Origin: Eledone cirrhosa
Taxonomy: Eukaryota
Assembly: GCA_964016885.1 (NCBI GenBank)
Contig: OZ024740.1
Location: 49,972,001 to 50,036,000, forward strand
Length of the DNA: 64,000 nt
Reading direction: 5' to 3'
Both the position numbers and the translations under genes were made by a program. The notes beneath the pieces were generated by a model. That model had not been told where the DNA came from. It ran no database searches and was given only the letters and a program-made list of their open reading frames with translations. Position 1 is the first letter of the stretch, and each line of letters starts with the position of its first letter. Positions 1,578-63,769 of the stretch are shown piece by piece.

Positions 1578-2935
1578 AATATAAGATCAAAAGATGGTTA
1601 AAGGAGTTCAATATATTTTATTATGCGCATTTCAAAAACAAACATCATCAAACAATAATATTTGTGTTTTCATCAGATAAAACAGGAGAACATGATATGA
1701 AGGCTAAAAAAACACTTGTTGATAGTGCAGTTTTAAATCAACATATGAAAAGTGGTTTTAGATTGATGTGTGATATTGGGAAAAATATTTTATTTAGAGA
1801 GGGGGGGAGAGAAAAGGATGAAAAGGGAAGGAGATGAGAGGGAGAGATGGGTGATAGAGAGAAAGAGATAGTTTTTATAACAGAGAGGAGATATATTTTA
1901 TATAGAGGGGTTGAAAACCGTTGGAAGATACTGTATAAATTAAAATTTTGAAAATTAACGAAGGGAGGATATGTGCGAGGAAAAAATATATTATATTTAG
2001 GGAGGGGTGGGGGTGGAAAGGATGAAAAAAAGGGGAGGAGATGAGAGTGAAGGTGGAAAGGGAGAGATGGGTGATAGAGAGAAAGAGATAGTTTTTATAA
2101 CTGAGAAAAAGATATAATGTTTTAATATAGAGAGGTTGGGAACCGTTGGAAGATAATGTATAAATTAAAGGAATTTGAAAATTAACGAAGGGAAATTATG
2201 TATGGAGATAGAGAGAAAAATAACGAAGGGAGATTATGTATGGAGATAGAGAGAAAAAAAAAAAAAAAAAAAAAAATAATAATTGTGGGTGAATATTCAA
2301 AAGGAGAAATGTAGGAATTTTAAAATTAGCAAAGAGAAAAAGTTTATGTATAGGATTTGAGAAAAATAATGTGAAGTTAAAGTTTTTATATTGAATTCAT
2401 ATGTATTAATAATGAGTTCGTTGATGGGGAGAAAAAAATAATAATAAATTAAGGATGAAATTGAGATTAAAAAGATTTATGATAGAGAGAAAAAATAATA
2501 ATGATTGCGGATGAATACTCAAAATGTCAAAAACAAATGTTATTGTTTTACGAGGAGATATAATGAGGGTGATGAGTAAACGGGTATTATAGAGTGTATA
2601 ATGCCCTTTAAAGTAAGGTAGATGGGTATATTTTAAAGAATATATGAGTATATATTAAAAAAATATATAATAATAAATTAAGGATGAAATTGAGATTAAA
2701 AAGATTTATGATAGAGGGAAAAAAAATAATAATGATTGCGGATGAATATTCAAAATGTCAAAAACAAATGTTATTGTTTTACGAGAAGATAGGATGAGGT
2801 AAATGAATAAACGAGTACTATAGAGTGTATAATGCCCTTTAAAGTAAGGTAGATGGGTATATTTTAAAGAGGTGTATGTATATGTGCCTTTGAGAAAAGA
2901 TTCTAAATTGATAAAGAATTGAATATTAACTGTAT
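1578..2935 (-). mobile_element. Non-coding 3' remnant of a PLE with terminal hammerhead and internal duplications
   Basis: Hammerhead near the left end; purine-rich + strand; internal direct repeats ~2436-2640/2665-2870 and ~1790-1975/1990-2200; (TA)n flanks. Confidence 0.6.
1614..1684 (-). ncRNA. Type I hammerhead ribozyme
   Basis: Minus strand: UGUUUUAU-CUGAUGA-[AAAC ACAAAUAUUAUU guuu GAUGAUGUUUGU UUUU]-GAAA-UGCGCA-UA/AUAAAAUA; 8-bp stem I, palindromic stem III AUGCGCAU. Confidence 0.85.
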
Positions 2936-3763
2936 GCATATATATATATACATATATATATATACATATATTTATATATACATATATATGTATACATATA
3001 TATATATATACATATATACATATATATATATATATATATATATATATATATATATATATATACATATACATATATATACATATATATATATACATATATA
3101 TATATGTACATACATATATATATACATATATATATATACATATATATATATGTACATATATATATATACATATGTATATATGTACATATATATATATACA
3201 TATATATATATACATATATATATATGTACATATATATATATATACATATATATATATGTACATATATATATATATACATATATATATATGTACATATATA
3301 TATATATACATATATATATATACATATATATATATATACATATATATATATACATATATATATATATACATATATATATATACATATATATATATATGTA
3401 CACATATATATATACATATATATATATGTACATATATATATACATATACATATATATACATATATACATATACATATACATATATATATATACATATATA
3501 TATGTATATATATATACATATATATATGTATATATATATATACATATATATATGTATATATATATATACATATATATATGTATATATATATATACATATA
3601 TATATGTATATATATATATACATATATATATGTATATATATATATACATATATGTGTGTATATATATATATATATATATACATATATATATGTATATATA
3701 TATACATATATGTATGTATATATATATATATATATATATATATATTTACATATATATATATAT
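2936..3763. repeat. (TA)n/(TATACA)-type microsatellite array
   Basis: Direct reading. Confidence 0.98.
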
Positions 3764-5650
3764 CTAAGGTGGGTAAAATTCCCGAGATCCATGGACGAGT
3801 TCTCTCCAGCGGTCTCTGTCCCTCATTATCGCTGCCATGTCCTGCATCTCCAACAGACCAGTGTCTGTCCTTAGGGCATCAACATACGGTAACCTTGGTC
3901 TTCCTCTTCTAGTGTGTCCATGTAGGGGCTCCCAAAGGAGCACTGAGTGCAATGTCAACTCTGGATGTCGGTGAGCATGTCCAGCCAACCTCAGTCTCCT
4001 CTGTGTCACTTTTGAGCTGACTTTTGTGATGCTCCCATACAGCTATGAGTTTTTCATCCTCAGTGTATACTGATTAATGTTCAGAGCCATCCTCAGCATT
4101 CTCGTGTAGCACCCATCCACCATCTGAGTGAGTTTCTTGGTAAGTGTCCAAGTCTCAGACCCATACAGCAGCACAGACTCCACTACAGCAATGAAGAGGC
4201 GGATTTTCAGGTCTCTACGAAGGTCCGACTTCCACACCGATCTCAAGCTGTGACACGCCGCCCTTGCTCTTCCTCTCAACCACATGATCTTCCGTATTCC
4301 CAATCTTTGCTCCCAAATACAGGAAGTCCTCAACCAATTCCAGCGGCTTCCCGCCTACATTAGTGATCCCCTCTGGCTTCTCAACATTCTCTACCAGATA
4401 TTTTGTTTTAGTCTCATTCATTCTCAGCCCCACACTCATCGACACAGTCTCAACCTCCCGCATCAAATCTTCTGCCTCCTTCACTGTATTTGTCACCAAA
4501 ACTATGTCGTCGGCAAATTCAGCATCCGATACCTTTTTCGCCCTAACTCTCCTGCTCTGAGCCGGTGCTACAGTAAAGCCAGAGTCCTGGTGTTTCTCCA
4601 GTGCAAGGCGCATACAATAGTCCACTACGATGATAAAAAGGTAGGGAGCCAATGTATCTCGCTGGAGCACTCCAGCCAGTATCTCAAAGAACTCTGTCAT
4701 CCCATCAGGTGTAATGACTTGGGCTTTGGTGTTGGTGTAGAGCAGTGATATCAGGTCCACTATGTTCTTGGGATTCCATAAGCCTGTAAGATCTTCATCA
4801 GGCAGTAACGGTCCACAGAATCAAAGGCCTTCCTAAAGTCAATGAAAACCATGACCGCAGGAAGGCACTTTGCTCTAGCTCCCTCTAATATCCTCCTCAG
4901 CATCAGGATGTGACTGGTGGTTGATCTACCCTCTCTGAAGCGGTTCTGGTTGTCCCTGAGCTTCTTCTCCATCTCAGGCTGGATCCTGTTAAGAATCATC
5001 CTGTTGAGGGTCTTTGCCACAAGTGACGTCAGGGAGATCCCCCGGTAGTTGTTGGTGTTAGAGAGATCTCCCTTCTTTGGCACTGGGACGATGTTACTGA
5101 TCCTCCACTGATTCGGGGCAACTCCTTTCTCCAGTGCCCCGTTACAGAACCCCAGGATGATCTCATCAAAATCACACCTCTTCATCACCTCTGATGCCAC
5201 TCCATCTTCTCCATGAGCCTTGCCCTCCTTGATCCTCTTCTTGGCTCTCTGAAGCTCCTCTCTGGTGAAGGGCTCTGTCTCAACATCCAGTTCCTCAAAC
5301 AGCCGCCTGATCTCCCCAGTGCTCTGGGCTGTGGAGGGTGGCTCTCTTAGTAGGGTCCTAAAATGGTCTAGCCATTTCCTCTTCCTATCCTCGGGCCCCG
5401 TTCCCTGGATCTGACTCGAACACCTTCTCTTCCTCCCTGTGATCTCGTTGATGATCATCCAGCTCTCCTTACATCCAGATCTGTCAACCGCTCTCCCCAC
5501 ACTTCTGATCTTCTCTACCAGTGCCTCCTTTCTGACCTCAGTGTAAGCGGTACAGAGCTCTTCCCTCATCACCTCCACAGTCTCCATCCTCTCCTCCATA
5601 GGATCAGCATAGAATTGGTCCCTGGCAGCTTTCAGGTGTTCTCTGGCTGC
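3764..5650 (-). mobile_element. 5'-truncated RTE-clade LINE with disrupted reverse transcriptase
   Basis: ORF pieces 4760-5650 ([19 protein letters not shown]), 4215-4760 (GVLQRDTLAPYLF, EFADDIVL), 4043-4333 (LLYGSETWTL), 3764-4009 (RRGRPR); broken by frameshifts. Confidence 0.9.
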
Positions 5651-5787
5651 ACACACATATATATATGTATATATATATATACATATATGTGTGTATATAT
5701 ATATATATATATACATATATATATATATATATATATATATATATATATATATATATATATATATATATATATATATATATATATATA

Positions 5788-6356
5788 GTAGAATAATCGA
5801 GTATCGAAAAATCGGCGCACGAGTTCACGATAAACAAAATTCGACATGAGTGGCAGAGGGCTCAATAATTCAGATAAATCAGAGCTATAACTATCGTTAA
5901 AATACCAACACACATAGATCATGTCTAAAATCAACCATACGACCGAAAAATTACGATCCGGAAGATTCGGGTCACTCAGATAAAATATCAATAAATCAAT
6001 AAATCATATGAATGTAAAAAGCTTACCCGGACCCACTAGAAAGATGGTAAATCTAGCTTCTTGGGTTTCTGTAAATCCTTAAATCGCCCACTATCAGCCC
6101 ACATAAAAATATATAAGACTTCTAGGGAGCGGCGGACAGGAAATACTTTATCAACGAGCTTTGTCCAAACGAATAAAAAAGCACAACCTTAGCTGAAAAC
6201 GCACATGGAATCCAGCAAGGGAGATAACCTCTATATCCGCGAAAAATATTCGGAATGTGGAAAATCACATATCGAATAAGAGTGCTCAATAGACATGTTA
6301 TAATAAACAGAAGCTATTCATCATTTAATAGAATCAACAAAAAATGAACAATAAAA
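5788..6356. other. Unclassified ~570 bp insert between (TA)n tracts
   Basis: Complex sequence with sharp (TA)n borders; no convincing ORF and no CUGANGA core on either strand. Confidence 0.35.
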
Positions 6357-6499
6357 ATATATATACATATATGTATGTATATATATATATATATATATAT
6401 ATATATATATATATATATATATATATATATATATATATATATATACATATATATATATATATATATATATATATATATATATATATATATATATATATA

Positions 6500-63146: not shown

Positions 63147-63191
63147 ATTGCCCTGATGAGTCCTTAATAGGACGAAACATTGTCGGCTAAT
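63147..63191 (+). ncRNA. Canonical-core type I hammerhead ribozyme
   Basis: AUUGCC-CUGAUGA-GUCC uuaaua GGAC-GAAAC-AUU-GUC/GGCUAAU, followed by AATAAA and (TA)(TG)n. Confidence 0.9.
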
Positions 63192-63400
63192 AAAAACTTT
63201 TGATGTATTAAAGGATTCTTTGTTTTACTCTCTTAATATATATATATGTGTGTGTGTGTGTGTGTGTGTGTGTGTGTGTGTGTGTGTGTGTGTGTGTGTG
63301 TGTGTGTGTGTGTGTAAAATGTAAACAGAAATAACAACACAATCGGCACAGTATATGGAAGGAATATATTAGGTTAACGCTTGATATAGCAGGAAGATGG

Positions 63401-63436
63401 TCTTAACGTTTCGGACGTTAGTCCTTCATCAGAAGA
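63401..63436 (-). ncRNA. Minimal PLE-type hammerhead ribozyme
   Basis: UCUU-CUGAUGA-A GGAC uaac GUCC-GAAAC-GUU/AAGA; stem III reduced to palindrome AACGUU. Confidence 0.85.
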
Positions 63437-63569
63437 AAGAATGACAAATAAGATAAATTGAAGGGACGGGCGAGGTGGAATTGGAAAAAATGTTTTTAGA
63501 GAAAAATAACAGATCCATTCATGTTGCTATATATATGTATATATATAGAGAGAGAGAAAAAAAAAAGAT

Positions 63570-63769
63570 AGGTAGAACACTGGAAGGTAATATCAGTAGT
63601 GGTAGAGCACTCAGTCCATGGGACGAGCTAGGTAGAAGTGGTAACACAACAGTTAGTTCACCATACCGAGAACAATTGTTTCACCTTAGCGAATCCTCAG
63701 CTCGTAATGAACATGGTCATACGGAACAATTGTTCTCGGTATGGTGAATTAACTGTTGTGTTACCACTT
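63570..63769 (-). mobile_element. PLE-end mini-element with inverted duplication (63636-63680 / 63725-63769)
   Basis: 45-bp inverted arms; hammerhead at 63667-63704; microsatellite flanks. Confidence 0.8.
63667..63704 (-). ncRNA. Type I hammerhead ribozyme with weak stem II
   Basis: CGAG-CUGAGGA-uucgcuaaggu-GAAAC-AAUU-GUU/CUCG; palindrome AACAAUUGUU. Confidence 0.65.

Follow-up and report, generated by a model that had tools for sequence, protein, structure and literature searches.

What are twelve hammerhead ribozyme motifs doing in a single 64-kb stretch of the genome of Eledone cirrhosa? The stretch (positions 49,972,001 to 50,036,000 of contig OZ024740.1, hereafter the window) has a GC content of 31% and abundant (TA)n, and it belongs to an assembly of 3.0 Gb in 1796 contigs. 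The 12 sites proved to be eight insertions, in four pairs and four singles, comprising six families of Penelope-like elements (PLEs) of the Hydra clade, one retrozyme built of 485-bp tandem units and one classical minimal hammerhead. The answer that we consider probable is that the motifs are type I hammerheads in the terminal repeats of these PLE and retrozyme insertions, and that they cleave only as pairs from the same family.

The original prediction had placed 12 CUGANGA...GAAA...UH motifs in the window, numbering each by the low end of its stem I, and all were found where it put them, with the core (CUGANGA, GAAA, UH) present at 12/12 sites; here each site is named by the position of its C3. 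A strict descriptor recovered 8/12 sites and nothing else in the window, as against 0.30 ± 0.57 (maximum 4) in 200 local dinucleotide shuffles, and when a palindromic stem III was demanded as well, the eight stood against 0.06 (maximum 1). A relaxed scan added 27257 and 34338, the forms with a 115-nt stem II. The predicted variety of cleavage triplets (AUA, GUA, AUC, GUU and GUC) and of stem II spans (11-115 nt) was borne out. The closing stems held for nine of the 12 sites, which have three stems with stem I open-ended; stem III fails in 24378, and stem II is weak in 63700 and 23050. Three of the stem III palindromes originally proposed (AACGAUCGUU, AACGUU and AACAAUUGUU) take in A14 and U17, which lie outside stem III, and not every family has a palindrome of its own: AUAUAUAU is common to the 12389 and 23050 families.

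The host element is most complete around hammerheads 27257 (27247..27400, plus strand) and 34338 (34328..34481, plus strand), which are identical, 7081 nt apart and predicted to be cut after 27390 and 34471, respectively. Each has a stem I of 10 bp, a stem II of 115 nt (with C.A at 10.1/11.1 and C.C at the fourth pair), ACGAUCGU as stem III and the triplet GUU. They sit in direct repeats of ~2.95 kb that flank an intact, plus-strand stop-to-stop frame of 830 codons (27693..30185; first ATG 27744). The upstream pseudo-long terminal repeat (pLTR), a partial tandem copy at 24527..27454 (plus strand), is mostly low-complexity and is 97.7% identical over 2963 columns to 31585-34535; the latter (plus strand) constitutes the 3' untranslated region and downstream pLTR, and terminates in (TA)n, 61 nt beyond the predicted cut. 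In the frame YRDD is followed by YIG...R, i.e., a PLE reverse transcriptase (RT) and then a C-terminal GIY-YIG in a single frame, with the motifs RWR, DKT, YRDD, CNCRNKANC (the CxCX5C linker), CRLC (CxxC) and CNH (CxH), and with neither a CxxC before the YIG nor a CCHH. As read from its translation, the frame matches the Hydra-clade signature set out by Craig et al. 2021 (PMC8557442, section 11), namely RWK/R, DKT, CxCX5C, and CxxC/CxH round E and N, without CCHH; the assignment rests on motifs because Pfam gives the frame no match at E ≤ 0.01. A first guess that the element was a Naiad was dropped on the clade definitions, given its C-terminal endonuclease and DKT motif, Naiad PLEs having an N-terminal GIY-YIG, DKA and no canonical hammerhead. 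The pLTRs, inverted 5' copies, tail and (TA)n insertion of Hydra-clade PLEs are all present among the window insertions. The 27257 family is young, because all 150 scored genome matches to the RT part of the frame round to 100% identity; many of these lie in complete frames of 830 codons, and some belong to head-to-tail arrays spaced at ~6.7 kb. Arrays of 4-5 such copies were seen at C1:183737803-183758567 and C6:49529884-49557242. The 3' region of the element is ~4 kb, including 2 kb of low complexity, published elements of the Hydra clade measuring <3 kb in all.

Two further pairs are inverted. Hammerhead 12389 (12332..12397, minus strand; stem II 31 nt, stem III AUAUAUAU, AUA, predicted cut after 12340) occupies the 3' pLTR of a Hydra-clade element truncated at its 5' end, and 14634 (14626..14691, plus strand) is its counterpart in the inverted 5' pLTR copy of that insertion. 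Between the two is the 5'-truncated frame (13688..14586, minus strand), which retains the CxCX5C linker and part of the GIY-YIG and is 40% identical to the intact frame (tblastn E 8e-38, 5e-4). Hammerhead 23050 (22982..23055, minus strand; Hydra-clade family, stem II 45 nt, AUAUAUAU, AUC, predicted cut after 22987) and its inverted copy 24378 (24373..24446, plus strand) occupy arms at 22931-23459 and 23972-24497. The base of stem II in 23050 is weak, reading U.U, G.U, A/A, C/C in the register of its relatives, and stem III of 24378 (AAAUAUAU) is non-palindromic and closes improperly; 24378 is likely inactive. Two extra U before G12 were entertained as a new core variant and dropped, as the relatives have register 0/0 with mismatches.

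The single motifs comprise three of the Hydra-clade families and the minimal hammerhead. Hammerhead 1676 (1614..1684, minus strand) is type I, with a stem I of 8 bp, a stem II of 36 nt, AUGCGCAU as stem III, the triplet AUA and a predicted cut after 1622; elsewhere in the genome (locus L223) a YRDD/CxCX5C frame is found 1.26 kb upstream of the same motif. Hammerhead 63153 (63147..63190, plus strand; GUC, predicted cut after 63184) marks the 3' end of its family, and has a canonical 4-bp stem II (14 nt) and the stem III ACAUUGU, a near-palindrome with a U.U centre. Hammerhead 63700 (63667..63704, minus strand; ACAAUUGU, GUU, predicted cut after 63671) lies within the inverted repeat 63633-63772; its 11-nt stem II has a U.U base and 2 bp only, and is weakened by a change present in 1/32 aligned copies. 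This family is often inserted as a fold-back of ~140 nt (window 63633-63772 and 61662-61845; loci L127-L150), in which the inversion point is just upstream of the core and varies in its exact base from copy to copy; the query favoured copies of this kind. Hammerhead 63432 (63401..63436, minus strand; GUU, predicted cut after 63405) is the classical minimal form, with an extra A after A9 and the stem III ACGU, and represents an older family.

That the motifs belong to PLE pLTRs, as had been proposed, was supported by Hydra-clade frames upstream of six families, by the pLTRs and by (TA)n ends. In 6/8 families at least one examined copy had a Hydra-like frame upstream on the same strand: 1/16 copies for 1676, 2/15 for 12389, 4/42 for 23050, 4/61 for 27257, 4/43 for 63153 and 2/37 for 63700, counts to be read with three facts in mind: the majority of loci extend no further than 1.5 kb, some copies recur in overlapping loci, and truncated copies prevail. 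The 63432 family has no firm clade; 1/25 of its loci had a same-strand GIY-YIG-like match 1 kb upstream. A genome DNA search for the 1676 family gave nothing with its AT-rich query, and BLAST of the loci examined gave seven copies.

The remaining insertion (9181..9895, minus strand) is non-coding and tandem, with a period of 485 bp and 230 bp duplicated at 100%, and is bounded by (TA)n. Its downstream copy carries hammerhead 9269 (9194..9275, minus strand; stem II 50 nt, stem III ACUGAUCAGU, GUA, predicted cut after 9199) and its upstream copy 9754 (9679..9760, minus strand; predicted cut after 9684). The repeat forms long arrays elsewhere in the genome at 485-486 bp spacing, and no PLE frame of its own was found among the 93 copies examined, the single match belonging to a neighbouring element. 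From its non-coding 485-bp units, each with one type I hammerhead, the insertion is predicted to be a non-LTR (non-long terminal repeat) retrozyme. In this it resembles the non-LTR retrozymes of Cervera and De la Pena 2020 (PMC7229834) and Li et al. 2026 (10.64898/2026.07.22.740005), which share the non-coding tandem unit, the single type I hammerhead in each and the PLE-like (TA)n ends, and differ in having a canonical 4-bp helix II in place of a 50-nt stem II and 10-nt palindrome. Tandem hammerhead arrays of other retrozyme families were also seen, at L097:6165-7877 and L099:456-3366, with periods of 311 and ~482 bp.

How ordinary such a stretch is was gauged by a census of 119 stretches of 10 kb, hand-picked round coordinates on large contigs, with a scan blind to palindromes. 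It returned 114 matches in 56/119 stretches, in 28 clusters, where 3.25 were expected (eight shuffles), and extrapolates to ~279,000 intact-core hammerheads in the genome (bootstrap 198,000-369,000). The census filter passes seven window sites against 6.2 expected (P = 0.39), and the window is therefore typical of this genome; the idea that it is a local hammerhead cluster was rejected on this ordinary density. The largest single-genome count found was 126,247 motifs in axolotl, and the comparison with ~280,000 is a loose one because the axolotl count used a narrower descriptor. The second largest census cluster (18/114; e.g., L260:5937 and L066:3086) has the non-palindromic stem III AGAACU or AGGACU; it is tied to a non-Hydra PLE frame with the linker CIDKKCITC, and in a dimer AGGACU might give rise to tandem G.A pairs.

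The census also bears on the length of stem II, which had been suspected of hiding such motifs from length-limited searches. The descriptor section of Cervera and De la Pena 2014 (PMC4209133) specifies gaaaNNuh, a stem II of 3-7 bp and a loop of 3-10 nt; this descriptor fits 2/114 census matches, and its stem II limits alone fit 54/114, which upheld the suspicion. In the Hydra-clade motifs of section 11 and File S2 of PMC8557442 stem II is ~26 nt or less, whereas here it reaches 115 nt in the window and 128 nt in the census, where 53/114 matches are longer than 26 nt, with 24 of at least 45 nt and 14 of at least 85 nt. One non-Hydra spike moss entry in File S2 has a longer stem II and is marked as deviant. 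The label "minimal" given to these hammerheads at first did not hold, as most match the Hydra-clade type with a stem III of 7-10 nt, and the 2-nt stem III insert of the minimal type was found at 63432 only among the 12. Literature searches returned no paper on long stem II forms, though Lunse et al. 2017, outside their coverage, may show such forms; relaxed descriptors have already been applied by others.

The covariation check that had been proposed for each family was run in two groups, using small alignments of related sequences and hand-drawn structures, and stem covariation was present in both. In the 27257 group (10 sequences), nine pairs had changed on both sides versus 2.7 after shuffling (0/500), and an AT-rich arm had been swapped for a GC-rich arm in the same register; in the 12389 group (22 sequences), 22 cells had changed on both sides versus 9.0 (0/500). 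In 59 matches to window families at the sampled loci, core mismatches numbered 17 in 649 positions versus 642 in 5421 outside the core, a disparity favoured by BLAST seeding and drawn from matches of which two families share some; the whole core was kept in 44/59, and 23050 was without a copy in the sample.

If the motifs are under constraint, what would make them act in pairs? When stem III is 8 or 10 nt long, its four central bases are unable to pair within a hairpin, and this central 4-mer is palindromic in 12/12 multi-copy families, in five kinds (GAUC, AUAU, GCGC, AAUU and ACGU), a pattern that agrees with the dimer-type stem III originally envisaged; among single census matches it is palindromic in 37/54 (46 with G.U). 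Stem III hairpins are predicted at +1.5 to +4.7 kcal/mol and duplexes at -1.7 to -13.6, and an active homodimer is better than two active monomers by 9.7-19.9 kcal/mol in 7/8 window families, from nearest-neighbour energies that ignore tertiary contacts. Dimer cleavage has been published for newt, axolotl and Schistosoma motifs. By this account, read-through of a tandem or partial-tandem arrangement would place two identical copies in one RNA; the two would swap stem III and stem I to form a double hammerhead, probably aided by the element's protein; and this would release unit-length RNA, possibly then circularised. Protein help is likely because the dimer outcompetes free-folding monomers in only 3/8 families and because stem III becomes locked inside the rod-like fold of the 27257 monomer (z -6.2), and the lizard PLE hammerhead is indeed protein-assisted (Frangieh 2024). 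The insertions stop 43-200 nt beyond the cut site and retain an entire motif, so reverse transcription is likely initiated internally, on RNA that is uncut or circular. Two discrete 3' ends were found per family, at 88 and 197, 61 and 198, 56 and 131, 51 and 153, and 43 and 132 nt past the predicted cut, and these paired ends agree with Frangieh 2024, where RT started at two internal sites.

Several observations, in addition to the seeding bias noted above, weigh against this account. Rfam gave no hammerhead match at the gathering score in the window and six loci, and at E ≤ 1 there was no hammerhead among the 150 of 376 matches listed, in which microsatellite matches to microRNA models dominate. 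The number of covarying pairs in the 12389 group was 5 versus 3.7, which is not significant (104/500). The dimer is not favoured for 63432 (+1.9 kcal/mol), and in 5/8 families the active homodimer offers no advantage over two free-folding, misfolded monomers (+0.4 to +16.2 kcal/mol). Among published minimal motifs cleavage is poor even in the dimeric form, and in Frangieh 2024 cleavage was dispensable for insertion in vitro and dependent on added protein, with no RNA ends at the cut site. A 10-nt stem III might serve in a working monomer, as 3 bp and a tetraloop, and pairing of 27257 with 34338 in cis is an assumption because the copies are 7 kb apart.

A further idea in the original prediction was that the palindromes form a recognition code, selected so that families diversify them and only kin RNAs activate one another in trans. 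Energies do predict the preference for the same family: all 28 cross-family window pairs came out worse than homodimers, by +6.2 to +36.8 kcal/mol. The 1676 and 12389 families, whose frames are 44% identical, could be taken as a case of such diversification, since they share stem I (8-10 bp of cross-pairing) and differ in palindrome (AUGCGCAU versus AUAUAUAU). A test of 24 families (23 multi-copy clusters and the 63700 family, with 38 single-copy clusters left out; 276 pairs), one in which shared ancestry inflates sharing and which weak selection could escape, found 17 pairs with compatible stems III versus 10.7 (95% range 5-18) for random palindromes matched in length, and there was thus no sign that overlap is avoided. 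Both stems were compatible in five pairs, and stem I only in 15, which stem III alone keeps apart. Palindromes were common to several families, AUAUAUAU recurring in 4/23 multi-copy clusters, ACUAGU and ACGAUCGU in two each, and ACAAUUGU in one multi-copy cluster and the 63700 family. Family-variable and shared stems III were already present in File S2 of PMC8557442, where, in the part concerned with Hydra magnipapillata, five families have ACUUUAAGU, and a tandem layout already provides a kin partner in cis. Type I topology dictates that the double hammerhead swaps stem I as well as stem III, and the two stems together explain the same-family preference with no selected code needed; the families are modelled as nearly orthogonal, leaky and requiring both stems, with no sign of selection. 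A selected code is therefore unlikely, and specificity likely arises as a side effect of stems I and III diverging, because stems III and II would drift freely while symmetry and pairing persist. No study of heterodimers or specificity was found by title or abstract opening; Lunse et al. 2017, which fell outside this coverage, may hold such tests.

It is improbable, in our view, that the motifs act mainly as monomers, with a stem III of 2-3 bp stabilised by protein or by a tertiary contact, such as C.C at pair 4 on stem I, and with the palindrome secondary. A stem III of 8-10 nt can be drawn as 2-3 bp and a tetraloop, as in invertebrate retrozymes that cleave well as monomers, and the lizard PLE hammerhead provides the precedent for protein assistance. 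The long stem II lacks a loop where the canonical loop 1-loop 2 contact would be made, and the C.C mismatch at its fourth pair (window 27267/27375) recurs in 10/33 long-armed clusters while the flanking pairs turn over; these clusters are related, and in them pairs 2, 5 and 7 are paired in 31, 29 and 30 of 33. The recurrent C.C is a candidate substitute for the tertiary contact. A monomer would nevertheless leave unexplained a palindromic loop in 12/12 families and in five different sequences.

Could the motifs instead be kept as a folded or dimerising RNA signal, for protein binding or RT positioning, with cutting rare or irrelevant? The catalytic mutants without effect on in vitro insertion (Frangieh 2024), the retention of the uncut motif in insertions, the defective-looking stem II base of the young 23050 family (~1240 first-look candidates) and the success of Naiad elements without canonical hammerheads all lend themselves to this explanation. 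We nonetheless regard it as very improbable, for the bases of the catalytic core (N7 excepted) are fixed while the stems turn over completely, and H17 varies among A, C and U only, as the scan demanded. Finally, the notion that the motifs are chance matches in AT-rich repeats is refuted, as the bare CUGANGA is indeed frequent (34 in the window versus 19 in shuffles) but the full motif exceeds expectation in the window (8 versus 0.3) and in the census (114 versus 3.25), and the stems covary.

With cleavage as same-family pairs retained as the preferred reading, how much of this is new? The kind of hammerhead is known, making most of the findings confirmation, and the additions are the long-armed Hydra form and its abundance. 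With the Hydra-clade hammerheads of section 11 and File S2 of PMC8557442, which list one octopus family, the motifs share the type I form, a position near the 3' end, (TA)n insertion, a (near-)palindromic and family-variable stem III of 7-10 nt, a stem II whose base carries a mismatch (U.U or another), and a frame with RWK/R, DKT, CxCX5C, CxxC and CxH and no CCHH. They differ from what is described there in a unit of ~6.7-7.1 kb as against elements of <~3 kb, and in the recurrence of C.C at stem II position 4. With the minimal metazoan PLE hammerheads, as treated in the relevant sections of PMC4209133, they share several families per genome, the extra base after A9, a palindromic helix III, the dimer model and opposite-strand inverted pairs, and 63432 is an exact fit. 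The G10.1-C11.1 pair is called "highly conserved" in those sections, whereas here it is the first/last stem II pair in 23/114 census matches, and published counts of 2,000-9,000 per genome contrast with our estimate of ~280,000, made with a broader descriptor. Because published descriptors would miss about half of these motifs on stem II length, hammerheads in animals may have been undercounted, and PLE families scored as "core" or "half core" might conceal long-armed motifs. The dozens of natural families with long and varied palindromes constitute a panel for studying dimer cutting and its purpose; in particular, 1676 with 12389 (same stem I, different stem III) and 12389 with 23050 (the reverse) separate the contributions of the two stems.

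A signal of a different kind came from run X4, which has the same organism label as run X1 and is another sample, of a kind not on record. In the region 27100-27700, X4 had A>G changes at 27357 (370/1074), 27371 (193/988), 27378 (449/2504; A11.1) and 27382 (560/2665; A15.1), i.e., 18-34% of depth, each in 19-32 contigs, as compared with 0/412,956, 64/663,544, 131/892,761 and 45/922,147 at the same sites in X1; genomic alignments have A in 61/61. Each site has a 5' U or A neighbour, which ADAR prefers. In a control on the minus-strand and inverted families (X4, X1 and X2 on L183:1190-3200), which had little power, there was no strand-dependent signal; depth was mostly 10-35, reaching ~480 on one family, and among the 40 of 94 rows listed X4 had a balanced 16 A>G and 15 T>C, mostly shared with X1/X2 or confined to a single contig. 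The changes at A11.1 and the core A15.1 are possibly adenosine-to-inosine editing, the alternative being alleles of another individual. The papers listed by a literature search included no case of ADAR acting on a hammerhead core, and editing here, if that is what the A>G represents, would be a natural one. The most far-reaching synthesis, which we hold to be doubtful, would have ~280,000 hammerheads, more than twice the largest count found, mostly of an undescribed long-armed Hydra-clade form with a C.C internal loop for loop-loop contact; ADAR would edit A11.1/A15.1 in about one-fifth of molecules, a host switch on the ribozyme of an active retrotransposon, and stems I and III would keep dozens of families nearly orthogonal.

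The window also contains three degenerate copies outside the 12, one of the 12389 family (1128..1202, minus strand) with its 5' end lost within the core, one of the 63432 family (41331..41362, plus strand) with the GAAA box lost, and one of the 63700 family (61769..61827, plus strand) with C3 and G12 altered. Unrelated to the hammerheads are the RT remnants of non-LTR elements (long interspersed nuclear elements) at 17391-19499 (plus strand), 4215-5824 (minus strand) and 42081-43205 (plus strand), identified by Pfam RVT_1 and zf-RVT. A dispersed repeat of ~190 bp, present in at least 15 copies between 36667 and 62633 of the window, some of them in tandem, has the look of a short interspersed nuclear element.

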